Below the pieces are notes generated by a model that saw nothing but the letters and a program-made list of their open reading frames with translations, did no database searches and was not told the DNA's origin. 54,096 nt of DNA, from positions 1 through 54,096 of the IMG/VR virus record IMGVR_UViG_3300005613_000081; one strand, 5' to 3'. The stretch's first letter is position 1. Each line of letters begins with the position of its first letter. The DNA comes from a virus. Its lineage: Duplodnaviria; Caudoviricetes. The position numbers and the translations under genes are program-made. Below are positions 15,836-36,309 of this stretch, piece by piece.

Positions 15836-16915
15836 ATGAAAAGGCTTACATATGAATTTGTTAAGGAACAGTTTGAAAAGGAAGGGTATGAGTTATTGAG
15901 TAAGGAATATGTAAATGCTAAAACTAAATTAGAATATAGATGTCCTAAAGGGCATAGGCATAATATTAAATTTAGTGATTGGAGACAAAATAGGAGGTGT
16001 CCTATTTGTTCAAGAGAAAAGGGAGTTGCTAAGAGGCGAGTACCCTTAGAGTTTATTAAAGCATCTTTTAAAGAAGAAGGTTATATTCTTTTAAGCACGG
16101 AATATAAAAATTGTGATTATAAATTAGATTACATTTGTCCGGAAGGGCATAAACACAGTATTTCATGGCATAATTGGAAAAGTGGTTGGCGTTGCCCTTA
16201 TTGTTATGATGAGTTTAGGAGAGGTCAAGCAACTAAAAAGACAATTGAATTTATTAGAGAACAGTTCAAAAATGAAAATTATAAACTTTTGACTGAAAAG
16301 TATGCCGATGCTCATCAGAAATTAGAGTATATTTGTCCTAATGGTCATAAGAGTGATATTAATTGGAATGTTTGGCAACAAGGGCATAGGTGTTTTTATT
16401 GTGCTATTGATAGAACTGCTGATAAAAATAGATTAAATATAGAATTTATAAGAACCGAGTTTGTTAAAGAAAACTATCAGCTTTTAACTAACAAATATAA
16501 AAACGCTCATCAAAAATTAGAGTATGTCTGCCCAGAAGGGCATAAACATAAAATAAGTTGGAGTGATTGGAAACAGGGTAATAGGTGTCCTTATTGTGCT
16601 ATTGTAGCTTCAAAAGGCGAAATCGAAGTAAGAAATTTTATTGAATCTTTAGAAATTAAAGTTTCGCCGAATGATCGAAGCCAAATTTTTAACCCGGAAA
16701 CTAGAAATGGTTTAGAATTAGATATTTTCATACCAGTCCTAAACAAAGCCATCGAATATAATGGTGAATATTGGCATCAAAACAAAAATAAAGATTTGCT
16801 TAAACAGGAATTGTGTAAGTTAAAAAATATAGAATTATTAACGGTGTGGGAGAATGATTGGAAAAAAGAAAAAAATATTTGTGAGAATAAAATAAAAGAA
16901 TTCATATTTAATTAA
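15836..16915 (+). CDS. Zn-binding repeat (4x) + Vsr/DUF559-like PD-(D/E)XK endonuclease, copy 1 (homing-endonuclease-like)
   Basis: Four EF..E.Y.LL...Y.....KL.Y.CP.GH.....W..W....RC..C repeats, then SKGE...ELDIF...AIEYNGEYWH...D..K. Confidence 0.8.
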   Translation: MKRLTYEFVKEQFEKEGYELLSKEYVNAKTKLEYRCPKGHRHNIKFSDWRQNRRCPICSREKGVAKRRVPLEFIKASFKEEGYILLSTEYKNCDYKLDYICPEGHKHSISWHNWKSGWRCPYCYDEFRRGQATKKTIEFIREQFKNENYKLLTEKYADAHQKLEYICPNGHKSDINWNVWQQGHRCFYCAIDRTADKNRLNIEFIRTEFVKENYQLLTNKYKNAHQKLEYVCPEGHKHKISWSDWKQGNRCPYCAIVASKGEIEVRNFIESLEIKVSPNDRSQIFNPETRNGLELDIFIPVLNKAIEYNGEYWHQNKNKDLLKQELCKLKNIELLTVWENDWKKEKNICENKIKEFIFN

Positions 16916-16930
16916 AGGAGGTTTTTAATT

Positions 16931-18511
16931 ATGGCGAGCGTTACGCGATGGACAAAATACGAAATAGATGCTATCGGATCTGCTGGTGATGGCGATGGGG
17001 AAGGATGTAAAGGTACTAGAGGATACTCAATTGGTACTGCTAGTGTTGGAGATACATTTACTATTGGTCCAACAACGAATAGACTACATCTTGCCATTGA
17101 TGGTGAGGCTGCTTCATATATTACTCTAGTTTCTGGTACTGATTTAGACCCAAGATTTGTAGCTAGAGATATAACGGAAAAATTACATCTTCTTAGTGGC
17201 CAAACTGAAGAATACTGGAGCCATGCTGTTTGTAGATGGGAGAATATACCAGATAAAGGTAATAGATTAAAAATTTATTCTGGTAGTTTAGGTAGTGGTT
17301 CTAGTGTTACTGTATCTAGCGGTACAAACGATGCTAAAACAGTGCTAGGTTTTGGAACTACGTCAGAAGTTGGTGGGTCTGCTACTGGTAATACTTTTGA
17401 TGGTACAGCTTCTGTTTCTGGTACATATTACGGATTTTTCGACGAAATGTATAAAGTAGTGATTGCTTGTGATAATGGTGGTTATGTAAGAGGGGTAGAT
17501 ACTCCTAGTCATACTGGCGGTACTTATGCTGGCACATTAACTACTGGTGGGATGTATAATGCTAGTCAAGATACTACTTATACAATTACGATAGATACTA
17601 CTAATGGTTCTACTATGGGTGCTGGCACTGGTAATGTTCCTCAAATGAGCTGGACTGATACTGGAACTGATACTGAGTCTACTGTTGATACTGAGTTATT
17701 ATATCCAAATTATTGGTATAAGGTAGGGACTAGGGGTCTAATGGTTAAGTTTACAGATGCTGCTTTTAGTAGTGATACTTGGACTGTTGCTTGTTATCAA
17801 CCTGATTATGCTCAGGGTACTAATGCAAGTGCACCGATAGGAGTTGCTAAATATACTTGGTCTTCTGATCGTGGGGATATGAGTAGTTCACCAATTACAA
17901 CAGTGTCTGGTGAGTATACAAGATTAGGGTCTAGAGGGCTGAATATAGAATTTGATGGTACTAATAATTTGTATGCTGGCGATGAGTTTTATGTTATAGT
18001 TGCTGCCCCACTACCATGTGATAAGGGTGAAGAAAGTTCTCATTATGATATTTCAAGTTTAAACTATGGCAATGTCACTGTATCAACAGAATCTGATGTT
18101 AAGTGTGTAATGTTTGAAATTGAAAGTGGCGCTGTTGAGATGAGTACGGTTAAATTTGGATTACAAAGCCATGGAAGTTTTAGTCATCATAACGAAGGTA
18201 ATAGTGATACATATTTTAGATTTGGTACAGTTGGTCCTGATAATACAGCTGGTACTTCTCCAACTAATGGTATTGAGTGGTATCCAGATATAGTGGCTGC
18301 AGATATAGATAGTGATGTTCCACCATCATATTTATATGCCACAGAAGATAATTTATCTGTTGTGGCTACGGCTGATCTTTCTGAAGCTGTTGGTAATTAT
18401 CCTTTATGTGGATTAACTAGTGACCCTCTGTGGTTAAATATTCATTTAGGGGCGAGTGAAACCGGTGCTAATAGTACTATTAATTACCGATGTTACTTTG
18501 ATTATAGTTAA
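16931..18511 (+). CDS. Gly/Thr-rich virion structural protein with sheath/flagellin-like accessory domains
   Basis: RBS aaggaggt. Carries the domain shared with 7221 and 24425, plus SGTY.G...YKVVI and GLNIEF....AGDEFYV beta-sandwich patterns. Confidence 0.55.
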   Translation: MASVTRWTKYEIDAIGSAGDGDGEGCKGTRGYSIGTASVGDTFTIGPTTNRLHLAIDGEAASYITLVSGTDLDPRFVARDITEKLHLLSGQTEEYWSHAVCRWENIPDKGNRLKIYSGSLGSGSSVTVSSGTNDAKTVLGFGTTSEVGGSATGNTFDGTASVSGTYYGFFDEMYKVVIACDNGGYVRGVDTPSHTGGTYAGTLTTGGMYNASQDTTYTITIDTTNGSTMGAGTGNVPQMSWTDTGTDTESTVDTELLYPNYWYKVGTRGLMVKFTDAAFSSDTWTVACYQPDYAQGTNASAPIGVAKYTWSSDRGDMSSSPITTVSGEYTRLGSRGLNIEFDGTNNLYAGDEFYVIVAAPLPCDKGEESSHYDISSLNYGNVTVSTESDVKCVMFEIESGAVEMSTVKFGLQSHGSFSHHNEGNSDTYFRFGTVGPDNTAGTSPTNGIEWYPDIVAADIDSDVPPSYLYATEDNLSVVATADLSEAVGNYPLCGLTSDPLWLNIHLGASETGANSTINYRCYFDYS

Positions 18512-18517
18512 TGGGTA

Positions 18518-18577
18518 TTTGATTTTATTATATAGTAAAATCAAAAAAATGGTTTATAATATATTAGATATTATAAA
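18518..18577. repeat. Two adjacent perfect 10-bp inverted repeats
   Basis: tttgatttta (18518-27) / taaaatcaaa (18536-45) and tttataatat (18553-62) / atattataaa (18568-77). Confidence 0.7.
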
Positions 18578-18694
18578 TAATTGTAGTATTAGATAAATAA
18601 ATATAAAATATAGATAATGAGTTTTATAAATAATTAAAAGGAAAAAACGACGATTTAATAGAATTACAGGCAAGGCAGTTTTTTATATAAAGGT

Positions 18695-18745
18695 AAGGAT
18701 AGATTGAATGGGAGTAGTGTCATTTGTCTATCCTTTTTTATTTTT
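18695..18745 (+). terminator. Probable intrinsic terminator
   Basis: aaggatagat-tgaatg ... cattt-gtctatcctt forms a stem with G-U pairs and runs into a T-rich tail (tttttta-ttttt). Confidence 0.6.
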
Positions 18746-18784
18746 ACAATAAATTTAACGAATTAGGAGAAGGAGGGTTAATAT

Positions 18785-19090
18785 ATGAATAGGTATTGGG
18801 AAGTCCAGTTAAAAGATGGGACTATTATACGTGAAGGACAAATGGAGTGGAGAAAAGTGCCTAAGAGGCATATTACCCGTTTGTCCTTATTTTTTGATCA
18901 TAAAAATTGGAATATTACTGGAAAAGAATCTTATTTTATTAAAAACAGAGCTTCTGTAGTGCCTGGTATCACAGAGTCTTTTAAAATTGAATCTAGGACA
19001 ATAGGTTTTTATGAAGGTGCTAAGAAAGTATGTTATACTGTTGATGAAAATACAGGTAAATTTAGTATGGAGGTTATAGATAATTCATAA
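18785..19090 (+). CDS. Hypothetical protein
   Basis: 101-aa ORF with RBS aggagg, coupled (TAATG) to the next gene. Confidence 0.75.
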   Translation: MNRYWEVQLKDGTIIREGQMEWRKVPKRHITRLSLFFDHKNWNITGKESYFIKNRASVVPGITESFKIESRTIGFYEGAKKVCYTVDENTGKFSMEVIDNS

Positions 19091-22000
19091 TGGTAGCTAC
19101 ACTAACACCAAATGTATGTCAGTATTGGATAACAGATGAACCTGTACAGTGTGAGTATTGGGACGATGTTAATAAGACATGTACTTTTGAACCTTCATCA
19201 GATGGTATTGAGGCTACACGTGCTCCTTATTGTAATAAAATAGGTACGGCTGTTGATTGTAATCATTATAGTGGTACTGGTATTAAGGCTAGATGTATTC
19301 TGCCAGATCCAAGTAGACATGTAGTTAATAGAACAACTGGTAAGAAGTGGGAGATTGATGATATTACTGGTTATAATGATGGTGATTGTGATGGCAGTGG
19401 TACTGATACTACTTGTGCTGGGTATTCGCCGTACCATATGGCTTTTAGTAAATTACAACCTACTTCGGATGAAAGCATAGATGATACTGGATTTTCTACT
19501 ATTGATGAGATTGGTTATAGACTTCCTATGAATTATGAAGTATATAATAAAAGAGCGAAACTAGGTAGATGTTATTGGTGGAAAGATGAGACTACGGATT
19601 TTTATATAGATAATGATCCTTCTAGTTTATCTTATGGTATGGTAATGACTTATATATCTAAATGCACTAATCCAGATGAAGTTACTTTTAAGTATAGGCA
19701 ATACAATTTTGATGAAGATACTGGTACTATAAATCCTCCTTGTAATGGAGCTAACCCAAGTTGTCCTCGTTATACTAGCAATGTTTGTTGGCAGTATTGT
19801 ATTGATGAAAAAATGAGACAGGGTAATAGAGTTTTAGCAGAACAAATTTTAGAATTAAGATATTATATAAAAAAAGATAAATGGACTGAATCTTTATATG
19901 AAAAGTCTTTTAAAGACCCTTATATTTTTGCTGGTACAAAAGCGTGGAAGGAATCATTGTATCAGGAAGAAGATAAATATTTAATAGTAGCAGCTCGTAC
20001 TTATATATCAGATTTTGAAGTATTTGATATTGATTATAATGAATCTCTTTTAACTGATGGTACTTCTGATTCAACATATAAAAAAGAGTACCCTACGTTA
20101 GTTAGAGACTTAAATAACTTTACTTTAACTCCAATTATTAGGAATACATTTGATGAGAATAGTGATGGTAAGTTTGTTTTTGAGGTGCCTAAACTACAAC
20201 ATAAGTATATTAAGATTGTTGGTGATGTTTTTTATTATGGTAGTACTTCTTATGGAGTTAATTTAAGTGATCCTGATTTATATTTTTTACCTCGTGAGTT
20301 ATTATATTTTGATAGTATGTCCGAAATAGAAAATAATTATATAGCGGCTGGTGCTTCGGATGGGTATACTAGTTTTTATAATAATTTAGAATGTTTATTA
20401 GAAAATTTAATTCATTATTGTCCGGATAAAGTAGCTGAGTCAGAAATCACAGGTGAGAACTCTTTTTATATGGATGTGGAGACGTTTTTTGGTAATAATG
20501 ATATTTTTGTTTTTGATAAAGGCAGTGGTGTTTGGGAATATGATAAAATCTCTGTGAAAAAGAATTTATGTAACGGGGTGGTTGGTCAAACTAGTTTTTC
20601 TGTTGATAATAGTGGTGGTACTATAAGTTATTTAGCATCGTATGAGAATAGTTTTTCTGGATTTGTAAATAAATCAGGTGAGGCTACTTTTTGTTTTTTT
20701 CCATTTATGTCAGAGGATGGTGGTGCTCAAGTAGATTATATTTATAATGATGGGGTAAGAAAAAGATTGAATTCTAATTATTCCTCTTTATCTGATATTG
20801 ACACTTATGAAATGTGTTATAAATTATACAAGGTGAAAGTGTTTGATAGATTATCGTTAGATCAGGAGAATTTTAGACTTTTTGGAAACGCTGGGTGGGT
20901 TTTAGTGACTATTCCGGATGGAAATATATTAAGCAATGTTATTAAGCCTTGGGAAGTATCTGGAGATATTACTATAACTGTTGTAGATGCCTTGAACGTA
21001 TCTCATAGTATTAAAATGGAAGTGGTTGATAGAGAATCAAACGTAGAGAAATTAGAGGTTAATCAAATAATAATAAAACCGGAAGATGTTGAAGATTTTA
21101 GACAGCCCTGTAGTGCTAAATTAAATATTGGTCCTATATATAATTATGAGAAGAGTAGTTTTGAAGATTATGAGGGAAGTGAAAGTCGTGAATTAGTAAG
21201 GGAATCCTTTTTAGATGATGATGATGTGATTGATTATAGAGTTGTTACTGAATTAAAAGAAGAGAATGGTCAGTATACTCTTACAAAATTTGGTACTGAG
21301 ACATTAATGATATCTGTTGTTTTTAAAGGGTCTAGTGGTAGACCTAAAGGTCAAATTAAGACCAAAATATTAACGTGGGTTAGACAGCCTTATTGTAGAG
21401 ATGTTGAAATATATTATAAGTGGTATGCTGAATATCAGAAATGTGTTTTATTACCAGAAATGAGGTGTTATGGTACCACAGGTTTAAGATGTGAAATAGG
21501 ATTAAATAAAATTACTATGGTTCCCCCTTGTGGAGATCATGATTTATCCTTGTGGAGTGGTAAAGGTTCTATGTGGTATCCTTATGAAGAATGTGATAGT
21601 GTTGCTAGATGGAATATAGTTGGTAATTTAACTGAATGGGATATTAATATTATGGATTGTTTTTGGGAGGGTGTAGATCCGCCGCACGGTTCTTGGGATA
21701 TGCGTATGTTAGGTCCAGACCAAGAAGAAGCTCGTACATGTGGTACACATGCTCAGTTATGGGCTTGTACTTGTGATTGGAGTTTTTGTAATTATAATAA
21801 AGTAACAGAAAATATATTTTGTGGTACAGGTATGTATAGAGGTGGTATAGATGGGGATGATTACTATAGGTGCATAAGAAATGATGGTGATGCACCTAAA
21901 TTTGGAAATGTTATAAGAGATTTTCTAAGAAGTTTTAGGTCTATAGATAATATAGATTATTATTATTTTGATGGTAGGTCTTTTTATAGAAATAGAAAAT

Positions 22001-24408: not shown

Positions 24409-24424
24409 TAGAGGAAGGAAATAA

Positions 24425-27400
24425 ATGTCATATAATTTTTTAAGAGATGCCAGACATATACAAAACTCATTTTTATGTAAATATGATAGTTTAGATGGGT
24501 ATGCTTCTGATTTCCATATAAATGGAAATGTAGACGGGTGGGATGTCTATAATAATATTTATTTATATGGTTGTTGGGGTAGTGTGCTTTTTGGTACTAG
24601 TTACGATAGAGATTGTTATATAAGTAGGTCCAATGTTTTTGAATATGTTGAAGCTGAAAGTTATTATTATATTAAACTTATGATGAAAGTTACTAATAAT
24701 AATAGTGGTAAAGTTGTTCAGGGGCTTACTACTGGTAGGATAAGATGGATAACGATTACCGATTCTACTTGGGATGAAGACAAACAATTAGATTTTGATA
24801 TAATAGCTGACGATAAATGGCGTTTGTATACAATAAACATGGGACCTGAGCAGTTATGGCAGGGAGATGTTAATAATTTAAGAATTTATCCTTTTATTGA
24901 TGGATGGGAAGGGGATGAGTTTGCTATTAAATTTATTAAAGTATCTTCTTTAAATAATTGGTCATGTTCAAATACACAATGCTCATATTATACTCAGTAT
25001 AATCATCCATGTGCTGGAGCTGGGAGTAGAGGAAGTTGTGAAGCTGGTATAGATAAATCTTCTTATACTACTGTATCTGGAGTTAGTGATAATCTTATAA
25101 TTAATATAGATGGGTATGGTGATGAAGAGTTTTCATTAGGAAATAATGTAAATGTTACTGGTATAGAAATGGCTAGGATTATAGGAGATAAAGTATCTAC
25201 TGTAGGAATTGGTGGGTATGCGTTTGTTGATGTAGAATACCTAGAAACTAATAAACTGAAAATAAAATCTGGTAGTATTGGATCAGATAGTTATGTAGAA
25301 GTTAAATATTCAACAGCATCTGAGGCTTTGGGATTTTATGATAATGGTATTAATGTATCTAATCATACTAGTGGGCTAGATCCAGCTGATAAATTTGATT
25401 ATACTTCGTCTAGATTACTACAATCATTTGAAATTAATAAATTAATAGATGGTGATAAAGAAAATGTAGCTTATATACATAACCCTAATCAATATAATGT
25501 TGAGGGTGGTAGAAAGGATTTTAATGAAATTGGAGTTTCTAAATTAATTTCAGAAATAGGTGGTGTTGATTACTATGAATCTCTTGGTAATAATAATAAA
25601 ACTTTAATAGACTTATCACATCCTATTAATAATAATGGTAGAATTAAAGCTATTTATTTGTATGGTAGAATATCTACTTTGTCTAAAGTTAAAATATGTA
25701 GGCCTAAGAAGGACGGTACTTTGGAAGTTGTTTGTAGTTTGGATTTACCATTAGAAGATGACAGTAAATTATATACTTATCTTCCGATTAATTATAGGTT
25801 AGATTGTAGTGTTTTGGTTAATAAAGGCGATTTAATTGGTATTTATAATGCTGATTTATATGTTGGTTTGACACTAAGAGGATATCCAGATGCTAGTTTT
25901 TACCATGTTAGTGGTGAAGTTAGTGGTACATTTGATCCTGGTAAAGTGTATTCGTTTGGTGTGGCTGGATTTGCTATATATGCTAGAGGAGATAGATATC
26001 AAAATAATTTATTATTAGATATAGATTTTGGTAATAGGATTAATATAGAGGAAGTTAATTTGTATGGTGAGGAAAACGCTGAATATTTAGAATTTAATAT
26101 AGCTTCTTGTTTAGATGTTAGTTGGCAGGTGGATTTATTTAGTGAATCTCATTATCATAGTGGCACTAATTGGTTAAACGGTGATCCTTGGACTGATGTT
26201 CACCAAAATATAGCTTATGGCGAAGATTGTTTGGATGATTGTATAGTTACTGCTGATAACGGTCAAGCTGGAGATACTTATGGTAATGATTCTAATGGAT
26301 TATGGACATCCGGAGACCATTCATATTTTTATGTAAATGGTGATGCTGAATGGTTATATTCAGATGAATGTACTGGTAAGACTGAATATTGTTGGCCTTA
26401 CGTTCCTGGGTCTGCTTTAGGTATAAGAACTGAAAGGGTGGGTGGTTTTACTTATGACCCTATAGCATTTACATTAATTTTTCCTCACGGGTTTAGAACT
26501 AGTATTCACAAAAGTATAATGTATTTTAAAGAGAGGGATAATTTTAGAAGTGTAGCTTTATCTTATTATTTAGGGCCCTATAATTTTACTGGTGATGCTG
26601 ATACCACATCCTTCAAATTGATACCAAGTTATAATTCAATTGGTTTAGATGGGTCTTTATATACTTATGAAAATAGTGGGGAAATTAGAGATTATATATT
26701 TAAAAATCCAACTAATCAAAGAATTATATATGCTAATGGTGCAGCTTCAAATTGGCGGGAATACCAAGCAGCTTTATGGGCTGATTGGGTTATACTAGAA
26801 CATAATTTCGATCCAGTAGAGTGTTATGGTTTTAGGATATATACTGATCATCATTATAGTACAAAAATAATGGAGTTAGAGGTTTATAGTAAAATAGAAA
26901 CTGATCCGTCTCTTTTAGATAATATTAGTTTATCTTTTTCGGATTATGATGATATTTGGAAAACAGCTAGTTTTGTTGAGGAATCATCTAATAAAGTCTC
27001 TGCTTTTATAGGAGGTTCTCCAAGGTATGTTTCTATAGAAATAGAATCTGCAAATGAATTTAGTGTTAACGAAATTGAATTTTTAGTCGGTGACCAATTA
27101 AAATTAGAGAGTTGTGAAGATACAATATTACTTAGTGAATCTGGGATAAATAAAGTAAATAAAGCCATGTCTATTGGTATAGAAAATATTTATGATATAC
27201 CATTGGATTTAACTGTTGATATACCAAAAGAAATATCTGATACAGATGGTATTATATTTTGGAGTAAGCTAGGATCTCAAGATGAGATTGATAATCCTGA
27301 AATAGGCCCTGGGTGTATATTACACAAAAATGATGATTATGATATACGAAATGATAATTGTCAATGTGCCATTAATATTCCGTGCTACGGTTTAAAAAAT

Positions 27401-30400
27401 TTAGTTGATGGTAAAGAATCTTATGTATTTGAAAATGAATATAGTTGGTATTATTATGGTACATTGAGTAGTGGTACTTCTGTAGATTATTGTAATTCTG
27501 AAGCTGGGCATAGAAAAGATATAGTTTTTGACGCAGTTTCTAGTAAATATTGGAAAGTAAGCGGATATTATCCAGAAGATTATGTTATTTCAAATGTTGA
27601 TGCTTTTTATAATGGAAACTCTGTGAATATAATTAGTACATTATCTGGTACAATGACATATGAATCGCCTTTTTTTATAGAGTTAGAAAGTAATGAACCT
27701 TTGGATACTATTATATTATATGCTACTGGTGATCTTACTTTACCATCTATTTTTTTGAGTGTTGATAATATTACTTATGGTTTGTGGGCTAGAGATATAG
27801 GTTCTACTAGTGATGCTACTGAGATTGATGGTACATGTGATTCTAAAGATTGTTATGATGATGATTGTGATTATTTTGGCTGCAGAAAGGCTTTTAATAA
27901 TGATGAAAGTGATTATTATCATTCAAAAGCAGGAGATGCTTTAGATCCCGAAAAATGGTTAGGGTACGATTTTGGTGAGGAAGTAGTAATTCAAAGAGTT
28001 AGATTTAAACAGTATAGTGCTACTGGTCATTACTTAAAAAATTATATTGTGGAAGGTACTACTGATGCTAATGCTGATTGGGATTCTAGATCTTGGACTA
28101 CATTAGCTAATGGTACTGGATCTATGGGTTGGAATGATATTACATTTAGTAATAGTACTGGATATAAGGCAATTAGAGTTAGAGGAGATTCACATTCGCC
28201 ATATTATTTTGTTGTTAAGGAAATGGAAATGTATGGCAGTGTTTTAGATAGTCCAAACAATCTGTCATTAAACATTTATGATTATTATAAATATTTTGTT
28301 ATAGATTTGGAAAGAAGGCATAATTTAGATATAATTAGAAATTATGGTGATGATACTAATAAATTATTTATAAGTACTAATGTTGTTACTGATTTTTCTA
28401 ATAGTATGACATCTAATGTAGATGATGTTATATGGAATAATAGTACTAATGAGGATGTTAGGTGGTTGAGGATCAAGATTTTATGTGAGGAAAGTAATAC
28501 TAAATGTTTGAGAAAGTTGGGTATTTATTCAGATATTTCTCAAGCTTATTGTATTGGCGGTGGATATAACTGTGAATGGGAATCTTTAGGTACTATTTTG
28601 TCATCATACCCAGCTCCGATAAATATTGCTTATGGTGCCACTGTTACTGGTACTAATTATTGGTTTAGAAATTATTATCCAGATAATGCTGTAGATGGTA
28701 TTTATGATAGTTATAAAACTGAAGATAGTTGGGGATTTCAAAAAGTTGATGGTATTGATCCATATTTAGAGATAGATTTTGATGATATTTATACAATTAA
28801 TAAAATAAAATTATACCATGGACATAATCCTAAAGATACTACATATATAAATAAAGATTATACACTCAGTGTATTAACAACTGTTTCTGGTATTTTTGAG
28901 GAAGTGCTAAGTGTAACTAGTAATGATGAGTATGAAGTAACACATCAATTTGATCCTGTTGATGCTCAGATTGTAAGATTGACAATTACTGATTATGATT
29001 CTAGTAGATATTTAGTTTATAACGAATCTACCCAAAGATATGAAGAATTTAAAGGTAGTTTTTTAAGAGAAGTGGAGATTTATACTTATGTAGATGAGGG
29101 GTATGTAGATAGTGAAACATGGCCTGTTGTGTGTATGAACTTGAAGGACCAGTTTAATATTATTGATCATGAATTAATTAATAAGGACATTACTGATTCT
29201 GATACTGATTGGGATAACAATGAAGATTTTTTTAAGTATTCCGATAATATTTGGAGTGATCCAGAAAAGGTTTCTTTTACTGAAGGTGGTGAATATGTAA
29301 CATCCTACGTAAGCGATGATAATTCAGGTGATGTAAGAGGATCTACTGAATATTTGTTTGATACAAATGTTTATTTTGAAGAGGGTAGGTATAATATTGA
29401 GTGGAGTGCTTATAAAGCTGTTTATAATGAAGAAATAAGTTTGAGGTTAGAGGGTAACAATGTTATAGATAGTTTTGCTGATGTTTTGTATGATGGATGG
29501 TCAGGTCAAAAAAGTATTATAGATATTTCTGAAAGTGGTTTTTATGATATAAAAGGTGTTCAGCATATAAGTCCTGAGTATAGGTGGGGGACGAAAGATC
29601 CGTATATATATAGATCTAGTGGTTATGTTAAATGGGTATCTGTAAAGAGAGATACTGCTGAAAATTATTCTTATGATGATGATTCGGATAAATATGGTAA
29701 GGATTATTTGTCATTATTTAAGGTTTTTGGCGATACTAAATATAATCCTTCAGAGTATAGTTGGTGGTGGTCATCAACTTTAAGTAGTTTAGATAATGAT
29801 GGGTTTAATGTACAAGTTGGGTCTCGTTCACTGAAAATTAGTTATCCAACATCATCTGGTACTGATATTGTTTCTTTTATAGAAGGTGATGATTTTGGCG
29901 AGGATATTTATTATTCGCCTGAGGATGCATTATCTTTTTGGTGGTATATTAGTGATGTGAGTAAATTAGATGTGGTTTTTGGAGATGTATCTTTTGGTAT
30001 TATAAATGGTGAAGAACCTATTTATTATAAATGGTATATTAATAGTTTATCTTTAACATCTAATTGGAATTATATTAGATTAAAGTTTAATGAATATGAT
30101 ATTGTTAGTCCTTCTACTGATTTATATAGTATGTATAGTTTTTTAGACGAAAAGTTAGATTTTCGTACAAACGGTAAAAGTTTTACTTCTTTTAAAATTA
30201 GATATAGAGGCAAAGGTCAATCATTTATTATGAATATCGATAGTTTAAAAATAGAAAGAAATAAATTTTTAGATTTTGTAAAATTTGAAAATGGATTATG
30301 CTTGACTAATGACGATTTTTTAGAAACGCCAATTTCTAATTTAAGTTTAAGAAAAGGGTCTATAGAGTTTTATCTGAAATTATATTATGATTCTTATGGT

Positions 30401-31075
30401 AGAGATATTTTTGGTAAAATGAAATCTAGAACTTTATTTACTCTTACTAATAATAATAATAATATAATAGCTTTAAATGTAAAAAGTGGTAATTGGTTTG
30501 AACCAGTAGTTGGTCAGATTAGAAAAAATTTAAATTTATTAAATATAGATGTAGATAATTTGTCTACTTCTAGTTTTTTAGATATTGGATCTGTAGTTCA
30601 TATTGCTTTAGTTTGGGATAATAGTGGTAGTTATATGGACGATAGAAGTACTATAAGATTTTATATTAATAATGAGTTGATAGTTAATTCTAGCATCACT
30701 TGGGATGTAGATAGTTCTAATAATGTTAATTTTAGACTTGGTGGTATAAACACTGAAATGGCTGGTAATAGGGATTTTTGGGGGTCTGGGATTTTTGAAA
30801 ATTTAAAGATATATAATTATCCAAAAACATCTTTTGATATAAATAACCAAAGTGTTGATAAAGATGTTGTTTATTTACCGAATGATTTTGTGGAGATATC
30901 TGATAATAATATTGATTTTTATGGTATAAATTCTGAAAATTTACCATTAGTGTTTCAACAGGTTTCTCCAAATAAAAGTCGCACAATTTATATTAGGTCT
31001 AATAAAGATAATACTTTTAAACAAACTAATATTAAGACGGGTACAGTTATTGTTGATTGGTTAGTTAGTGTGTAA
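24425..31075 (+). CDS. Giant multi-domain adhesin-like virion protein (several F5/8-type C/CBM-like domains, C-terminal LamG/ConA-like domain)
   Basis: WLGYDFG...VKEMEMYG and NIAYGATVT...NAVDG...YLEIDF...LREVEIY are discoidin patterns. GSIEFY...HIALVWD...IRFYINNEL...LGG...FENLKIYN is a LamG pattern. Confidence 0.75.
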   Translation: MSYNFLRDARHIQNSFLCKYDSLDGYASDFHINGNVDGWDVYNNIYLYGCWGSVLFGTSYDRDCYISRSNVFEYVEAESYYYIKLMMKVTNNNSGKVVQGLTTGRIRWITITDSTWDEDKQLDFDIIADDKWRLYTINMGPEQLWQGDVNNLRIYPFIDGWEGDEFAIKFIKVSSLNNWSCSNTQCSYYTQYNHPCAGAGSRGSCEAGIDKSSYTTVSGVSDNLIINIDGYGDEEFSLGNNVNVTGIEMARIIGDKVSTVGIGGYAFVDVEYLETNKLKIKSGSIGSDSYVEVKYSTASEALGFYDNGINVSNHTSGLDPADKFDYTSSRLLQSFEINKLIDGDKENVAYIHNPNQYNVEGGRKDFNEIGVSKLISEIGGVDYYESLGNNNKTLIDLSHPINNNGRIKAIYLYGRISTLSKVKICRPKKDGTLEVVCSLDLPLEDDSKLYTYLPINYRLDCSVLVNKGDLIGIYNADLYVGLTLRGYPDASFYHVSGEVSGTFDPGKVYSFGVAGFAIYARGDRYQNNLLLDIDFGNRINIEEVNLYGEENAEYLEFNIASCLDVSWQVDLFSESHYHSGTNWLNGDPWTDVHQNIAYGEDCLDDCIVTADNGQAGDTYGNDSNGLWTSGDHSYFYVNGDAEWLYSDECTGKTEYCWPYVPGSALGIRTERVGGFTYDPIAFTLIFPHGFRTSIHKSIMYFKERDNFRSVALSYYLGPYNFTGDADTTSFKLIPSYNSIGLDGSLYTYENSGEIRDYIFKNPTNQRIIYANGAASNWREYQAALWADWVILEHNFDPVECYGFRIYTDHHYSTKIMELEVYSKIETDPSLLDNISLSFSDYDDIWKTASFVEESSNKVSAFIGGSPRYVSIEIESANEFSVNEIEFLVGDQLKLESCEDTILLSESGINKVNKAMSIGIENIYDIPLDLTVDIPKEISDTDGIIFWSKLGSQDEIDNPEIGPGCILHKNDDYDIRNDNCQCAINIPCYGLKNLVDGKESYVFENEYSWYYYGTLSSGTSVDYCNSEAGHRKDIVFDAVSSKYWKVSGYYPEDYVISNVDAFYNGNSVNIISTLSGTMTYESPFFIELESNEPLDTIILYATGDLTLPSIFLSVDNITYGLWARDIGSTSDATEIDGTCDSKDCYDDDCDYFGCRKAFNNDESDYYHSKAGDALDPEKWLGYDFGEEVVIQRVRFKQYSATGHYLKNYIVEGTTDANADWDSRSWTTLANGTGSMGWNDITFSNSTGYKAIRVRGDSHSPYYFVVKEMEMYGSVLDSPNNLSLNIYDYYKYFVIDLERRHNLDIIRNYGDDTNKLFISTNVVTDFSNSMTSNVDDVIWNNSTNEDVRWLRIKILCEESNTKCLRKLGIYSDISQAYCIGGGYNCEWESLGTILSSYPAPINIAYGATVTGTNYWFRNYYPDNAVDGIYDSYKTEDSWGFQKVDGIDPYLEIDFDDIYTINKIKLYHGHNPKDTTYINKDYTLSVLTTVSGIFEEVLSVTSNDEYEVTHQFDPVDAQIVRLTITDYDSSRYLVYNESTQRYEEFKGSFLREVEIYTYVDEGYVDSETWPVVCMNLKDQFNIIDHELINKDITDSDTDWDNNEDFFKYSDNIWSDPEKVSFTEGGEYVTSYVSDDNSGDVRGSTEYLFDTNVYFEEGRYNIEWSAYKAVYNEEISLRLEGNNVIDSFADVLYDGWSGQKSIIDISESGFYDIKGVQHISPEYRWGTKDPYIYRSSGYVKWVSVKRDTAENYSYDDDSDKYGKDYLSLFKVFGDTKYNPSEYSWWWSSTLSSLDNDGFNVQVGSRSLKISYPTSSGTDIVSFIEGDDFGEDIYYSPEDALSFWWYISDVSKLDVVFGDVSFGIINGEEPIYYKWYINSLSLTSNWNYIRLKFNEYDIVSPSTDLYSMYSFLDEKLDFRTNGKSFTSFKIRYRGKGQSFIMNIDSLKIERNKFLDFVKFENGLCLTNDDFLETPISNLSLRKGSIEFYLKLYYDSYGRDIFGKMKSRTLFTLTNNNNNIIALNVKSGNWFEPVVGQIRKNLNLLNIDVDNLSTSSFLDIGSVVHIALVWDNSGSYMDDRSTIRFYINNELIVNSSITWDVDSSNNVNFRLGGINTEMAGNRDFWGSGIFENLKIYNYPKTSFDINNQSVDKDVVYLPNDFVEISDNNIDFYGINSENLPLVFQQVSPNKSRTIYIRSNKDNTFKQTNIKTGTVIVDWLVSV

Positions 31076-31087
31076 AGAGTGGATATT

Positions 31088-32125
31088 ATGGTTAAAAAGA
31101 TTACATATGAATTTGTAAAAGAACAATTTGAGAAAGAAAAGTATAAGTTATTAAGCAAAGAATACATTAATGCTCATACAAAATTGGAATATGTTTGCCC
31201 TCAAGGACACAGGCATAGTATTATTTGGAATAGTTGGCAGCGAGGACATAGATGCCCTTTTTGTGTTGGACTCGGTAAGCCTTCTATAGAATTTATTAAA
31301 TCTGAATTTGAAAAAGAAGGATATCAACTTTTAACAGATAGATATATAAATAGCAGACAAAAATTAGTTTACATTTGTCCAGAGGGTCATAAGCATAATA
31401 TTACATGGTCTTCTTGGTGGTTTCAGAAATGTAGATGCCCATATTGTGTTGGAAAGGCTAAGCCGATTACTGAATTTATCAGGTCGGAATTTAAAAAAGA
31501 GGGTTATGAATTATTAACTAAGGAATATGTGAATAGTAGGCAAAAGTTAGATTATATCTGTCCTAATGGGCATAAACATGATATTTCATGGCATGATTGG
31601 CAACAGGGCCGACGCTGTTATTATTGTTTTGGTAATATAAAACCGCCTATAGAATTTATTAAATCTGAGTTTGCTAAAGAGGGTTATATTCTTTTAATTA
31701 CTGAGTATGTAAATAGTCAGCAGAAATTAGATTATATTTGTCCTAGAGGGCACAAGCATAATATTAGTTGGAATAGATGGAAACGAGGGCAAAGATGCCC
31801 ATATTGTATTGGGAGAATTTCTAATGAAGAGGTAGAAGTAAGAAATTTTATTGAATCTTTGGGCATTAAAATTTCACCAAACGATAGGAAACAAATATTT
31901 AATCCATATACTGGGAATGGGTTTGAATTAGATATTTTCATGTTAGATTTTGATAAAGCTGTGGAATATAATGGGACTTATTGGCATAAAGATGAGGGTA
32001 GGGACTTACTCAAACAGCAGCTTTGTAGAGCAAAAGGAATAGATTTATTAACTATTTGGGATAAGGAATGGTTAAATGATAATGATAAATGTAAAGATAA
32101 AATAACAGAATTTATATTTAATTGA
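31088..32125 (+). CDS. Zn-binding repeat (4x) + Vsr/DUF559-like endonuclease, copy 2
   Basis: Same architecture as 15836..16915, with ELDIF...AVEYNGTYWH...D..K. ATG 31088 is preferred over GTG 31079 because it matches the paralog N-termini. Confidence 0.8.
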   Translation: MVKKITYEFVKEQFEKEKYKLLSKEYINAHTKLEYVCPQGHRHSIIWNSWQRGHRCPFCVGLGKPSIEFIKSEFEKEGYQLLTDRYINSRQKLVYICPEGHKHNITWSSWWFQKCRCPYCVGKAKPITEFIRSEFKKEGYELLTKEYVNSRQKLDYICPNGHKHDISWHDWQQGRRCYYCFGNIKPPIEFIKSEFAKEGYILLITEYVNSQQKLDYICPRGHKHNISWNRWKRGQRCPYCIGRISNEEVEVRNFIESLGIKISPNDRKQIFNPYTGNGFELDIFMLDFDKAVEYNGTYWHKDEGRDLLKQQLCRAKGIDLLTIWDKEWLNDNDKCKDKITEFIFN

Positions 32126-32152
32126 ATAATGAAATAAAAAGGGGTTTAATAA

Positions 32153-35100
32153 ATGGCAAAATACAATTTGATTCGAAATGGAAGTCTCCAACCACTTTTA
32201 GTAAGTGGCACTGGCAATAGGAATTTAAGCTGGCTTCAATTAGAAAGTTTAATGGATGGGACAACTACTTCAGGAGGAGTTACTTTAACATCTGATGATG
32301 TTTTGTATTTGGAAGCTGATATGTCCAATCGGGTTAAATTAGATTCAGTAAGACTTTATGCTAGTGATTTAACTAAATCATCCAACATTAATTTTTATTA
32401 TAAAAACTATGATAGTGATAATTATACTTTGTGTTCTAAAAGTGTGGGTGATTACTATTATCCCACATTACCAAGTCCACAAGCTCCTAGGTTTATTTTA
32501 ACTACTATTTCAGGTATTAGTATACAAATATATGAATACATGATAATTAACAATGATACTATAGTGGCTTATGGGGAAGACGGTAGTGAATATGCTAAAT
32601 ATCTGGATGATTGCCCTGTTGGTGAAACAGGCGATGCTACAACTGTATCAATTTATAATAATTCTACAAACGCTATGCCTGCAAATGCTTATGTGTGTGT
32701 GGATTGGACAGATGATGAGGCTGATAATTATGTGAAAATATCATCGAGTGAAAATGGTACTTATTATGGTATTGAAGATGGTATATTAGTTGAGGATAAT
32801 AATGAATCATCAACTTATATGTGGGATATGGGTGAGTATAGTAATATGGAGGTTTCTGGTGACAGTGTTGTTATAAGCTCAATTGCGGATGGTTTAGTTA
32901 TAAAAATGTTGGATGAGTTGCCTTTAATAGATAATTCCAATGCATTTGGTACAGGAAGTAACACATGGGATTATGATAGTGTTAATAAAAAAATGTATGT
33001 TATTGGTAGGGATTCTTCAACGTTAAAATTATGGGAATATAATTATAGTGATGATGAGTGGGACTATATAGGAGAGATAGATAGTGTTGGCAGTGATAGT
33101 GACGCTAATTTTCCAGTAATGTCTTATTGTTCTGTATCTGGTACTAATAGGATATATGTAATGACTAAATTTGATGGCACGTTCGGTTATTATGACTTAG
33201 ATGGTATTCAAGATAATTGGACTACGTGTGTTAATCCAAATTGGAGCTTTAGTTTAGATTCAAGTGACAGAGTTTCTATGTGTAGTGATGGCGTAAAATA
33301 TATATATGCTTTAACTTCTGAATATGGGGAAGATTTTAATGATAGAAATTTCAAAAGGTTTGATACTATATCTGGTACATGGACTACTTTGAGTGGATCA
33401 TACCGTCAATATCCATATGAAAGTGGAAGTGGAAGTTATTATCCAAATAGAACTTGTATGACTTATGATAAAGACAGAGATTATATTTATTTGGCACAAG
33501 GTTCTGAGGGACATGCCACTAATAATTATATACAAAAATATGTTGTGGATTCTAATGTGTGGAATAATCAATATATAGATGTTGATGAATTAACAGGATA
33601 CGAGTCAAATATATTTTATTCAATATCATATTGTAATAATTATTTGTATTTAAGTTGTGACGAAAACTGGGAGTCTTATTTTTATTCGTACAATCTATCC
33701 ACAGCTGAGGTCGAAAAAATTTATTTGGGATACAAACATGAAACTGTAAATCAAAATGGGCCAAGTTGTTATATATTAGCTATTAATCCTTCTGATAGTG
33801 GTAATAGTGTATATTTTGCACAAATTGATGATTATAGTGAATATTTAATTTCCTATGGGGTTGTATTTAGTAGTGTTGGTATTTATACATCTCCAATTTT
33901 TTATTTTGAAGATGTTGATAGCGTAAGTTATTTTATAACTGATGGTACTACTGAAAGTGGTAGTAATAGTATAAGCTATAATGAGAATGTATATAATGGT
34001 ACTATTAGAGTGAGAAGTAGTAATACTACTCCTTTAACTATTGATGAAGTTTATTGGGGAATAGAAACATCTAGTAGTGATGTGTATATAAAAAATGCTG
34101 TTATATACAATGGTGATTTTAGTGATTTGGTTAGTGTGGGCAGTAATTATTGGACACCTTTATTTATAGCAGTTGATAAAAGAACTGGTTATATTTATTT
34201 TGCTTATACTTATTATTATAACTGGAACAATAAGGGTGCTGGATTTTATGTATATGATTATAATGGTACTTTAATATATGATATAGGAGGAGGCTTTTAT
34301 TATAACGAATCTGTTATTACTAATGTTGAAATAGATAAGTTTGGTAATATTTGGTGTTATGCAGTATCTGCTAAAACCTTATTTCATAGAGATGCTTCAA
34401 ATGATAGTAGTTTGTATTCATATAATGATGGTACTGATTTTCTTTACGATTTGGCTGTTGAGATGGGTGGTACTGGTGTATGGTATACTGATAAGTTAAA
34501 TGATTTAATAGTTCATTTAGATACAGATGGTAATGTTTTGCATCAATTACCATCAAATGAACCTAGAGCTATTTGTGGTACTACAGATAATGGTTGTTGG
34601 ATTACTGATAATACTGATGAAAAGGCATATAAGTATAGTTCTACTGGTACCTTGTTGCAAACAGTAGATATTGGGAGAACAGCTACTCGTATGTGTAGTG
34701 ATATGGTGGATGGTTTTTGGTATATTAGTAGTGACCATGTTTATCATGTTGACAGTAATGGTACTGAAGATGTAGATGTTTCTGTTGGTAATGTTTCCAG
34801 AATTAAAGGTGGGTATAATGGGTGTGTTGTATGGCCTAGCGATAATGATTGGGTAAAATATATAAATAATAATGGAAATATTACTAGGACTTTTACAATA
34901 CCCGGTATAACTAATACAGCTTGTCCAGCATTATTTTCTTTTAGACATGAAGATTTTGTCGAATTTCAAGATACTGCCAACTTAATTCCAGTTAGTTATG
35001 ATCCTATTTGGGGAACAGGTGGATCTCTTGAATGGAAAGAAGTTAGAAAAGATGGATATTTTTTACCAAAAGTTAGATATCACCAAACTGAAACAACTTT

Positions 35101-35281
35101 GAGATGTGAAAGTTATAGTAGTCCTTCTTTGGATAAAATAATTGTTCCAAGATCTATCAAGGTTCAAGATATTGCCAAACAATCAAGTAAAAATATTTAT
35201 ATAAAAACTGTTATACCTCATGATGCGTCGATTCAAGATTATTCTGCTTGCCTTAAAGCTTGGTGGGGATGTGAAGTATGA
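32153..35281 (+). CDS. Virion protein with Kelch-like and NHL/Vgb-like beta-propeller regions
   Basis: Repeated (K/R/Y)(M/I)Y.....(LWEY/FKRF/IQKY)....W blades, then GVWYTD, GCWITD and GFWYI blades. Confidence 0.6.
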   Translation: MAKYNLIRNGSLQPLLVSGTGNRNLSWLQLESLMDGTTTSGGVTLTSDDVLYLEADMSNRVKLDSVRLYASDLTKSSNINFYYKNYDSDNYTLCSKSVGDYYYPTLPSPQAPRFILTTISGISIQIYEYMIINNDTIVAYGEDGSEYAKYLDDCPVGETGDATTVSIYNNSTNAMPANAYVCVDWTDDEADNYVKISSSENGTYYGIEDGILVEDNNESSTYMWDMGEYSNMEVSGDSVVISSIADGLVIKMLDELPLIDNSNAFGTGSNTWDYDSVNKKMYVIGRDSSTLKLWEYNYSDDEWDYIGEIDSVGSDSDANFPVMSYCSVSGTNRIYVMTKFDGTFGYYDLDGIQDNWTTCVNPNWSFSLDSSDRVSMCSDGVKYIYALTSEYGEDFNDRNFKRFDTISGTWTTLSGSYRQYPYESGSGSYYPNRTCMTYDKDRDYIYLAQGSEGHATNNYIQKYVVDSNVWNNQYIDVDELTGYESNIFYSISYCNNYLYLSCDENWESYFYSYNLSTAEVEKIYLGYKHETVNQNGPSCYILAINPSDSGNSVYFAQIDDYSEYLISYGVVFSSVGIYTSPIFYFEDVDSVSYFITDGTTESGSNSISYNENVYNGTIRVRSSNTTPLTIDEVYWGIETSSSDVYIKNAVIYNGDFSDLVSVGSNYWTPLFIAVDKRTGYIYFAYTYYYNWNNKGAGFYVYDYNGTLIYDIGGGFYYNESVITNVEIDKFGNIWCYAVSAKTLFHRDASNDSSLYSYNDGTDFLYDLAVEMGGTGVWYTDKLNDLIVHLDTDGNVLHQLPSNEPRAICGTTDNGCWITDNTDEKAYKYSSTGTLLQTVDIGRTATRMCSDMVDGFWYISSDHVYHVDSNGTEDVDVSVGNVSRIKGGYNGCVVWPSDNDWVKYINNNGNITRTFTIPGITNTACPALFSFRHEDFVEFQDTANLIPVSYDPIWGTGGSLEWKEVRKDGYFLPKVRYHQTETTLRCESYSSPSLDKIIVPRSIKVQDIAKQSSKNIYIKTVIPHDASIQDYSACLKAWWGCEV

Positions 35282-36309
35282 AAAGAAAAAGATACACAAT
35301 AAATGATGTTAGAGAAGCTTTTGAAAAAGAAGGATATCAACTTCTTACCAAGGAATATGTAAATAGTAAGCAAAAGTTAGATTATATTTGCCCAAAAGGA
35401 CATAGACATAGTGTTAGGCGGACTAGTTGGCAACAAGGACATAGATGTCCTTATTGTGATGGCCAAGGTAAACCGACCATTGAATTTATTAGATCGGAGT
35501 TTGCTAAGGAAGGATATATTCTTTTAACAGATAAATATATTAATACAAAATCCAAATTAGATTATATTTGCCCCAAAGGTCATAAACATAGTATTTGTTG
35601 GGCAAATTGGCAACAAGGACAACGATGTTATTATTGTAAGCATAACGTGCCTACTATAGAATTTATTAAGAAACAGTTTGAAAAAGAAAATTATAAACTT
35701 TTAACTGTTGAATATAAAAATTGTTATCAAAAATTAGATTATATTTGTTTAAATGGGCACAAGCATAGTATTTGTTGGAATGACTGGAAAAATGGAAATA
35801 GGTGCCCTTATTGTGCTGGTCAGGGTAAGCCAACTATAGAATTTATTAAGTCGGAATTTGCTAAGGAAGGTTATAGACTTTTAACTACTGAATATAAAAA
35901 TGCTCATCGAAAATTAAGTTATATTTGTTCAAAGTGGCATAAACATAATACTAGTTGGAATAATTGGCAGCGTGGAAAAAGATGTCCGTATTGTGCTGGT
36001 AATATTTCAAAGGGAGAAATAGAGGTAAGAAATTTCATCAAATCCTTAGGAATTGAAGTTTCATCTAATGATAGGAGCCAGATATTCAATCCAGAAACTG
36101 GCTATGGATTTGAACTAGATATTTTTATGCCATATCTTAATAAAGCTGTAGAGTATAACGGTGAATACTGGCATCAGGATAAAACTAGAGATTTACTTAA
36201 ACAACAACTTTGTGAATCGAAAAACATTGATTTGTTAACTATTTGGGATAGAGGGTGGGAGACTAATAGTGAAAAGTGCAAGAAAAAAATAATTGAATTT
36301 ATATTTTAG
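35278..36309 (+). CDS. Zn-binding repeat (4x) + Vsr/DUF559-like endonuclease, copy 3
   Basis: Same architecture; SKGE...ELDIF...AVEYNGEYWH...D..K. ATGA overlap with the upstream gene. Confidence 0.8.
   Translation: MKRKRYTINDVREAFEKEGYQLLTKEYVNSKQKLDYICPKGHRHSVRRTSWQQGHRCPYCDGQGKPTIEFIRSEFAKEGYILLTDKYINTKSKLDYICPKGHKHSICWANWQQGQRCYYCKHNVPTIEFIKKQFEKENYKLLTVEYKNCYQKLDYICLNGHKHSICWNDWKNGNRCPYCAGQGKPTIEFIKSEFAKEGYRLLTTEYKNAHRKLSYICSKWHKHNTSWNNWQRGKRCPYCAGNISKGEIEVRNFIKSLGIEVSSNDRSQIFNPETGYGFELDIFMPYLNKAVEYNGEYWHQDKTRDLLKQQLCESKNIDLLTIWDRGWETNSEKCKKKIIEFIF

Follow-up and report, generated by a model that had tools for sequence, protein, structure and literature searches.

How does an endonuclease built from tandem zinc-binding repeats find its target, and which residues of the repeat decide it? 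This question is raised by three paralogous genes in a 54,096-nucleotide (nt) stretch of viral DNA (Duplodnaviria; Caudoviricetes) that makes up positions 1 to 54,096 of IMG/VR record IMGVR_UViG_3300005613_000081. The whole stretch is called the window below. The genes, named here homing endonuclease gene (HEG) A, B, and C, each encode four zinc repeats followed by a nuclease domain. They are probably intact, free-standing homing genes of the Hef-like, EDxHD kind, in which an array of CapR-type repeats aims a Vsr-fold nuclease and a nine-column patch within each repeat most likely sets the preference of that module. They are inserted in the short spacers that separate late structural (fibre-like) genes in a large uncultured phage.

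Domain plan and family identity

The repeat unit has the form C-x-x-[GW]-H ... C-x-x-C and occurs four times in each protein. The anchors are spaced 65, 66, and 65 amino acids (aa) apart in HEG A, 60, 61, and 60 aa apart in HEG B, and 60, 59, and 60 aa apart in HEG C. The CapR homology domain of Pfam (PF21817) matches four stretches in each protein, with scores above the gathering cut-off of 24.2 bits (Table 1). There are also weaker matches to the related DUF4379 treble-clef family. A family sample was made up of the best 120 of 1,287 homologs (E-value up to 1e-5) together with the proteins of the window, and 525 near-full-length repeats from 121 of its proteins were compared over 57 columns. 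The predicted zinc ligands C34, C53, and C56 are invariant in these repeats, and H38 is present in 520 of the 525. The first ligand pair is C-x3-H, whereas CapR has CxxC in this place (CxxC...CxC for the complete set). An AlphaFold 2 (AF2) model of HEG C has a predicted local distance difference test score (pLDDT) of 85, and a model of a single repeat has a pLDDT of 90. The modelled repeat starts with a helix, which is followed by a short strand, by a beta hairpin that carries the C34/H38 knuckle, by a short helix, and by C53-x-x-C56.

The nuclease domains match the EDxHD/Vsr-like group of homing endonucleases, whose prototype is I-Bth0305I. The nuclease of HEG B matches I-Bth0305I (PDB 3r3p) in a phmmer search (E-value 4.3e-4). 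In a Foldseek search, the HEG C model matches 3r3p with a probability of 1.00, a template modelling (TM) score of 0.73 on the target, and a root-mean-square deviation of 3.0 over 99 columns, and it matches the Vsr structures 1vsr and 1cw0 with a probability of 1.00 each. The residues E279, D281, E292, H299, and D305 (HEG C numbering) are invariant in all 48 aligned four-repeat homologs, HEG A, B, and C included. In the HMMER alignment, this E/D/E/H/D stretch stands opposite the region of D196, H213, and D222 in the I-Bth0305I construct of 3r3p. Because these motif residues are invariant, the nucleases of HEG A, B, and C look catalytically intact.

The PHROG families of homing and HNH endonucleases match the three proteins at E-values of 1e-57 to 1e-79 (for example, HEG A and PHROG 559, 5e-79). 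With tblastn, relatives are found in 482 phage records, many of them annotated as Hef-like homing endonucleases, and each Campylobacter phage genome contains 10 to 12 matching places. An initial annotation, made from the letters and a list of open reading frames (ORFs), had described three ORFs with four zinc repeats and a Vsr-like nuclease each, and had placed them among the homing-type endonucleases. The + strand reading frames, the repeat spacing, and the match to 3r3p in both sequence and fold confirm the first point, and the CapR, PHROG, 3r3p, and Hef-like matches confirm the second.

HEG A, B, and C share 56–65% protein identity and 67–71% DNA identity in pairwise comparisons. Their 12 repeats are 45–72% identical to one another, and repeats at the same position in the array correspond only in part. 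Judged from this divergence, the three paralogs are old.

Variable columns of the repeat

The initial annotation had singled out the two residues that precede an invariant Trp in each repeat. These dipeptides are SD, HN, NV, and SD in HEG A, NS, SS, HD, and NR in HEG B, and TS, AN, ND, and NN in HEG C. All twelve are exactly as first listed, with 11 distinct pairs in 12 repeats, and the variable triplets of the motif Y-x-[ND]-xxx-K-L also agree exactly with the earlier list. Among the 12 repeats, each dipeptide column has five residue types, columns 21 and 27 have six, and columns 43 and 51 have seven.

Over the 525 repeats, the dipeptide columns 45 and 46 have entropies of 3.14 and 2.75 bits and rank 3rd and 11th of the 57 columns. 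Columns 51 (3.56 bits) and 27 (3.44 bits) rank higher, columns 9, 49, 57, 31, 17, 43, and 48 are comparable to the dipeptide, and 22 of the 57 columns exceed 2 bits. The per-column entropy that had been proposed as a check therefore shows a dipeptide that is highly variable but not uniquely so. Its residues are mostly N, S, H, D, and G across the family. The number of distinct dipeptides (97) is near the value calculated for independent columns (108 +/- 3).

The variable columns differ in composition. Columns 9, 10, 22, and 31 are acid-rich (22–54% D/E), which is common at ordinary solvent-exposed positions. Columns 26, 27, 41, 43, 45, 48, 49, and 51 are acid-poor (8% D/E or less), with many N, S, T, Q, H, K, and R residues, and column 46 has 16% D/E. 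In the AlphaFold models, the acid-poor columns map to the loop before strand 2, to alternate residues of strand 3, and to the short helix and the loop that follows it. Both variable spots of the initial annotation, the dipeptide and the triplet, fall within the acid-poor set. The covarying pairs 33-39 and 32-40 fit the register of the hairpin, and the pairs 46-51, 43-46, and 45-48 covary within the set. Columns 26, 27, 41, 43, 45, 46, 48, 49, and 51 are treated below as one patch. The dipeptide belongs to this larger surface because columns 51, 27, and 49 are equally or more variable and column 46 covaries with columns 51 and 43.

In its strict form, the initial annotation would have each repeat read a fixed DNA word, with the dipeptide as a code letter like the repeat-variable diresidue (RVD) of transcription activator-like effectors (TALEs). 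The dipeptide is kept in some repeats of endonucleases from the same site (described below), and its restriction to mostly N, S, H, D, and G would also suit such a code. The near-random pairing of the two residues, the variability of columns 51, 27, and 49, the covariation of column 46 outside the dipeptide, and a scaffold identity between repeats of just 45–72% all argue against it. A fixed dipeptide code is highly improbable. The picture of a single hypervariable dipeptide on a constant, TALE-like scaffold is not upheld by the 22 variable columns, the ranks of the dipeptide, and the 97 dipeptides.

Occupied and empty alleles of the A site

Homologs of the 526-aa gene downstream of HEG A are preceded by 59 distinct junctions in viral and metagenome contigs. 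An endonuclease is absent from 41 of them (empty) and present in 14 (occupied); the other 4 are too short for assignment. The occupied junctions include the DNA of the window itself (L080) and one contig that was counted twice (L077, the same as L137). With the duplicate removed, all occupants are CapR-array endonucleases with two to four repeats, and ten have an HNH nuclease and three an EDxHD nuclease. The EDxHD occupants have four repeats in the window and three in L075 and L132. The HNH occupants have two, three, or four repeats (L137, L119, L121, L123, L116, L125, L146, and L129), and two are cut copies (L117 and L118).

Nine occupied loci were listed with both flanks, and in these the insert either fits between the stop codon upstream and the ribosome-binding site or start codon of the 526-aa gene or overlaps them. 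The gene upstream of the site encodes 475 aa in the window compared with approximately 205 aa in relatives. Its 3' end is alike across the listed loci, up to the stop codon that adjoins the insertion point. This pattern is the expected footprint of homing, with what would be repeated independent invasions of one site.

The spacers that flank HEG A, B, and C measure –4 to 99 nt, and the whole window has no Rfam match at the gathering threshold and no transfer RNA (tRNA) gene. The three genes are free-standing.

A different role for the genes would be that of domesticated elements that no longer home and act as repressors, like CapR or CasPR, or as exclusion nucleases directed at competing phages or satellites. 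Recruitment of CapR-type domains as repressors and anti-CRISPR silencers is on record (PMC8096241 and the CasPR preprint), and all three copies in the window are intact, closely packed within a late operon, and mutually diverged (67–71% at the nt level). The invariant catalytic residues make a pure repressor role unlikely, and presence and absence at the A site, with insertion into the same spacer in the listed loci, is a classic signature of homing. A homing enzyme can also exclude co-infecting phages, so that exclusion is no true alternative. Loss of homing is very unlikely on balance.

In L123, the resident endonuclease (two repeats, HNH) is preceded by a spacer (L123:2629-2783) that contains an untranslated remnant, which resembles the first repeat of the L121 type. 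This suggests a decaying or truncated endonuclease copy.

Patch signatures among same-site endonucleases

Repeats were compared between 11 distinct proteins of the A site; L140 was left out as a duplicate of L121. The patch columns had been picked from family data that include HEG A and exclude all other same-site proteins. Seven or more of the nine patch columns match in 6 of 378 cross-protein repeat pairs from the same site, compared with 118 of 135,064 pairs in the family background (odds ratio 18, Fisher p 1.5e-6). Ten control variable columns show no such excess (2 of 378 same-site pairs versus 877 of 135,064).

The closest pairs show the same division. Repeat 2 of HEG A (CD SSHNKSW) is identical at 8 of 9 patch columns to repeat 2 of L119 (VD SSHNKSW) and to repeat 2 of L121 (CD SSHNKSY). 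In these pairs the control columns agree at 4 of 10 positions, and the scaffold is 69% identical, which is approximately the family mean. Repeat 4 of L129 and repeat 3 of L146 agree at 9 of 9 patch columns and at 2 of 10 control columns. In the C-terminal halves of repeat 2 of HEG A and repeat 2 of L119, 7 of 18 identical residues are on different codons, including the serine of column 43 (TCA versus AGT), so the likeness is not a recent DNA transfer. Codons were compared in same-site pairs in place of the ratio of nonsynonymous to synonymous substitution rates (dN/dS) because synonymous sites are saturated (67–71% DNA identity, 50–65% protein identity).

The order of the modules also recurs. 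The signature HN-KS-[WY] is found in 1 of the 525 background repeats, which is repeat 2 of HEG A itself. An SD- or RD-type module followed by an HN-type module is present in HEG A, L119, L121, and L137, despite the two extra repeats and the other nuclease of HEG A. The dipeptide of the first repeat is SD in four of five proteins (HEG A, L075, L119, and L121) and RD in L137, and that of the second repeat is HN in all four (HEG A, L119, L121, and L137). A second recurring order at the A site consists of an AK-type module, then an NN-QQ-K type, and then an ND-KN-S type.

This conservation fits a patch that sets target specificity. The initial annotation had proposed that the repeats may be modular base-reading units, retargeted by changes in a few residues. 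That part survives in so far as the variable residues are hypervariable across the family yet conserved as a block at the same site. The reader would be a patch of approximately nine residues, and the restriction to a dipeptide does not survive.

Modularity across homologs

The proposal that the arrays are modular holds among the 121 homologs, which contain three to seven repeats per protein. The C-terminal nuclease is of the EDxHD type in 88 of the 121; a different tail is present in 32, and the remaining protein lacks a nuclease. Among the 32 other tails, 25 have the motif of tails in which Pfam finds HNH (P0093 and P0048) and five have a second motif of the H-x-D-H type. In four-repeat proteins, the nearest repeat is at the same array position for 39 of 57, 24 of 57, 25 of 56, and 27 of 57 repeats at positions 1 to 4. 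Positional homology is above the chance level of 25%, yet far from strict on this measure. By these sequence comparisons, the array behaves as a portable module.

Most full-length homolog pairs (1,447 of 1,865) are 50–65% identical. Six pairs exceed 70% identity, and one of these is HEG B compared with itself. On these identities the radiation of the family is star-like, with what appears to be a fixed scaffold and saturated free positions.

In some close relatives (P0016, P0034, and L076:6671-8599), a Mom-family domain (Pfam PF25680) stands beside the Vsr-like nuclease.

Specific modules or non-specific clamps

The arrays could instead be low-specificity DNA clamps, with the nuclease picking the site as in I-Bth0305I and the variable residues drifting neutrally. 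The contacts that I-Bth0305I makes beyond its central 14 bp are described as largely non-specific in PMC3239194, variation in the repeat is spread over 22 of 57 columns, and nearly all full-length pairs fall within the identity range that a saturated, fixed set of free positions would give. Three observations do not fit neutral drift. The patch is kept as a block in same-site endonucleases while the other variable columns stay at background, the patch columns avoid acidic residues and the other variable columns do not, and the same repeat signatures precede two unrelated nuclease types at one site. A role as clamps is thus unlikely, and a patch that sets the preference of the module remains the favoured reading.

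Several points weigh against this favoured reading. The Fisher p overstates significance because same-site pairs are not phylogenetically independent, and the shared type NN-QQ-K is near the family consensus, which makes chance matches easier. Signatures at the A site fall into at least two or three sets that are unrelated to one another, so that a given site does not call for a given signature; either the enzymes read different sub-sites or no simple rule applies. I-Bth0305I, the one characterised EDxHD enzyme, is a dimer in which specificity resides mostly in the central 14 bp, which are read by the nuclease, and its N-terminal region, which has a different fold, makes largely non-specific DNA contacts (PMC3239194). 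That the patch forms a single DNA-facing surface is inferred from its composition and from the strand register given by the covarying pairs 33-39 and 32-40. Foldseek with the whole-protein model matched PDB entries at the nuclease and none at the repeats, and the single-repeat model has a best Z of 3.8 against 48,161 chains, with no solved relative; this absence does not show that the fold is new. The comparison of occupied and empty alleles covers copy A (59 junctions) and copy C, for which the one relative compared (L078) has a different gene at the site.

A more ambitious claim is that the nine-column patch works as a transferable surface for DNA recognition, with signatures legible as letters and an order of signature types that recurs in proteins with different repeat numbers and unrelated nucleases. 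This claim is unlikely.

Proposed mechanism

Each protein consists of four CapR-type, treble-clef-like zinc modules (predicted ligands C34, H38, C53, and C56), short linkers, and a Vsr-fold nuclease. From what is known of the family, the array would dock the enzyme on DNA beside an unoccupied allele during co-infection. The nuclease would then cut, probably as a dimer like I-Bth0305I, and recombinational repair would copy the gene into the break. The patch, which includes the dipeptide at columns 45 and 46 and spans the loop that leads into strand 2, a single face of strand 3, and the short helix after it, most likely sets the DNA preference of the module. The invariant residues K29 and R52 probably hold the DNA backbone. 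If the patch sets this preference, the choice of target would change when the patch mutates, when modules are gained, lost, or shuffled, and when the nuclease is exchanged.

Relation to known systems

The architecture of an array joined to a nuclease is already in print (Merk and Eddy 2025; "Hef-like" homing endonucleases; Barth 2023). Merk and Eddy (Nucleic Acids Research 2025; PMC12350094) describe three to five domains of approximately 60 aa, related to CapR, DUF4379, and DUF723, followed by an EDxHD/Vsr-like nuclease of approximately 100 aa, and state that thousands of relatives lack annotation. The domain plan of these enzymes, as given there, is identical to that of HEG A, B, and C. The examples described there are encoded within introns (group I or group II) of phage genes, whereas HEG A, B, and C are free-standing and have no detected intron RNA.

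Hef-type phage endonucleases are assigned to the EDxHD family in PMC3239194. I-Bth0305I (3r3p) has the nuclease fold and catalytic motif of HEG A, B, and C. It differs from them in two NUMOD/helix-turn-helix-like DNA-binding motifs and in being intron-encoded in recA, whereas HEG A, B, and C have zinc modules and are free-standing. The Hef and Hef-like genes (T-even U5 Hef; F-LimIII, F-LimVII, F-LimVIII, and F-LimX of Dickeya phage LIMEstone1; Campylobacter phage Hef) resemble HEG A, B, and C in being free-standing and in lying between structural genes (PMC3296691). In tblastn comparisons, the Campylobacter phage Hef-like genes are 28–29% identical over more than 90% of the protein. All relatives in the phage collection are distant (less than 60% identity).

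DNA binding by CapR-type domains has been demonstrated by experiment. In PMC8096241, the CapR of the phage-inducible chromosomal island-like element (PLE) requires its zinc cysteines to bind DNA, and the CasPR preprint reports the same dependence for a CapR domain. Repeated CapR/DUF723/DUF4379 modules are described in the T5orf172 homing endonucleases of ICP1 in PMC10448857, where it is proposed that modularity speeds the diversification of target recognition. These ICP1 enzymes and the PLE CapR share with HEG A, B, and C a similar repeated and shuffled zinc DNA-binding module. The ICP1 nuclease is T5orf172 (GIY-YIG-like) and the CapR ligand pattern is CxxC...CxC, whereas HEG A, B, and C have a Vsr-like nuclease and the pattern C-x3-H...CxxC. 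That homing endonucleases can contain modular CapR-type repeats open to exchange is already a published idea (PMC10448857, PMC12350094).

A 2026 preprint on CapR/AP2 anti-CRISPR repressors states that the relation between CapR domain and target sequence needs further study. Full-text literature searches of main texts returned no structure of a module on DNA and no recognition table. In outline, HEG A, B, and C, with tandem small DNA-binding modules joined to a nuclease that probably needs dimerisation, are like engineered zinc-finger nucleases (ZFNs) and TALE nucleases (TALENs); there is no homology. Unlike those systems, the modules here are approximately 60 aa long with many variable positions, and the nuclease may add specificity. 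The near-constant scaffold with few code positions that is typical of TALEs and zinc fingers is absent, as seen in the number of variable columns and in the identity between repeats.

Gene neighbourhood of the window

The window is a 54-kb piece of an uncultured virus record that is estimated to be approximately 20% complete. Its guanine-plus-cytosine content is approximately 31%, and the long ORFs are all on the + strand. The fibre-like genes are large and contain Big_1, F5/8 type C, and Laminin_G_3 (concanavalin A-like lectin) domains. They are followed by a replication block with thymidylate-synthase-like, sliding clamp, UvsX-like recombinase, DnaB-like helicase, primase, and exonuclease genes. 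The features of the three HEGs and of the A site are given in Table 1. For the 1042-aa gene between HEG B and HEG C, no relatives were found in the viral contigs or in four records with related endonucleases.

Table 1. Location of HEG A, B, and C, their domains, and the genes that flank HEG A.
Feature	Positions	Strand	Size or residues	Basis or remark
Upstream flank of HEG A, putative fibre/structural gene	14399..15826	+	475 aa	Synteny with L075, L076, and L077
HEG A, free-standing Hef-like/EDxHD homing endonuclease gene	15836..16915	+	359 aa	CapR 46.2 bits
HEG A, four-repeat array	15842..16600	+	3-59, 68-124, 134-190, 199-255	Repeat-profile hmmsearch, zinc-ligand anchors
HEG A, EDxHD/Vsr-like nuclease domain	16610..16912	+	259-359	Nuclease-profile match
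Downstream flank of HEG A, conserved gene	16931..18511	+	526 aa	
HEG B	31088..32125	+	345 aa	CapR 51.7 bits; from ATG 31088, alternative GTG 31079
HEG B, four-repeat array	31097..31810	+	4-60, 64-121, 125-181, 185-241	Repeat-profile search, zinc anchors
HEG B, EDxHD/Vsr-like nuclease domain	31817..32122	+	244-345	Profile match; PDB 3r3p
HEG C	35278..36309	+	343 aa	CapR 57.0 bits; start overlaps stop of upstream 1042-aa gene (ATGA)
HEG C, four-repeat array	35290..35997	+	5-61, 65-121, 125-180, 184-240	Repeat-profile search, zinc anchors
HEG C, EDxHD/Vsr-like nuclease domain	36004..36306	+	243-343	Foldseek 3r3p, 1vsr, 1cw0

The 526-aa gene is followed by a 273-nt AT-rich non-coding gap (18512-18784), and relatives carry genes in this place. 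The equivalent position contains a 285-aa protein with Phage_endo_I/TnsA-like matches in L075, a 642-aa protein with CapR, Vsr-like, and Mom-like parts in L076, and a 305-aa ORF in L077. In the window, the gap resembles a second, unoccupied hot spot.

The 475-aa gene upstream of HEG A and a 1234-aa gene downstream of HEG C resemble each other. Positions 14399-15208 and 36409-38717 are approximately 82% identical at the nt level over approximately 735 bp, the proteins are 86% identical over 143 aa, and both have internal tandem repeats. This likeness may reflect recombination between fibre-gene paralogs. Duplication of the HEGs along with a paralogous fibre gene was considered and rejected: the shared segment is upstream of HEG A and downstream of HEG C.

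A fourth selfish gene (40954-41481) encodes a 175-aa HNH_3/NUMOD4 endonuclease and shares bases with the stop codon of the thymidylate-synthase-like gene before it (217 aa, 40304-40957). No Rfam intron RNA is found in this region, even at E-values up to 1. In L078, a 230-aa thymidylate-synthase-like homolog is followed by a nucleoside diphosphate kinase gene, and the HNH gene has no match among the ORFs of that contig. The first ORF of the window contains a tandem direct repeat of approximately 84 bp with 90% identity (834-998).

Implications

HEG A, B, and C themselves are ordinary selfish elements of large phages. The added value of the locus is a single polymorphic site that is mostly empty and is otherwise occupied by two to four modules with one of two nuclease types, with module signatures that are conserved. 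For the question of how CapR domains relate to their targets, the A site supplies proteins, candidate specificity residues, and, in its empty alleles, candidate target DNA. If the patch signatures are readable, matching signature types to the DNA beside many polymorphic sites of this kind could lead to a recognition table and to a new programmable scaffold for DNA targeting.

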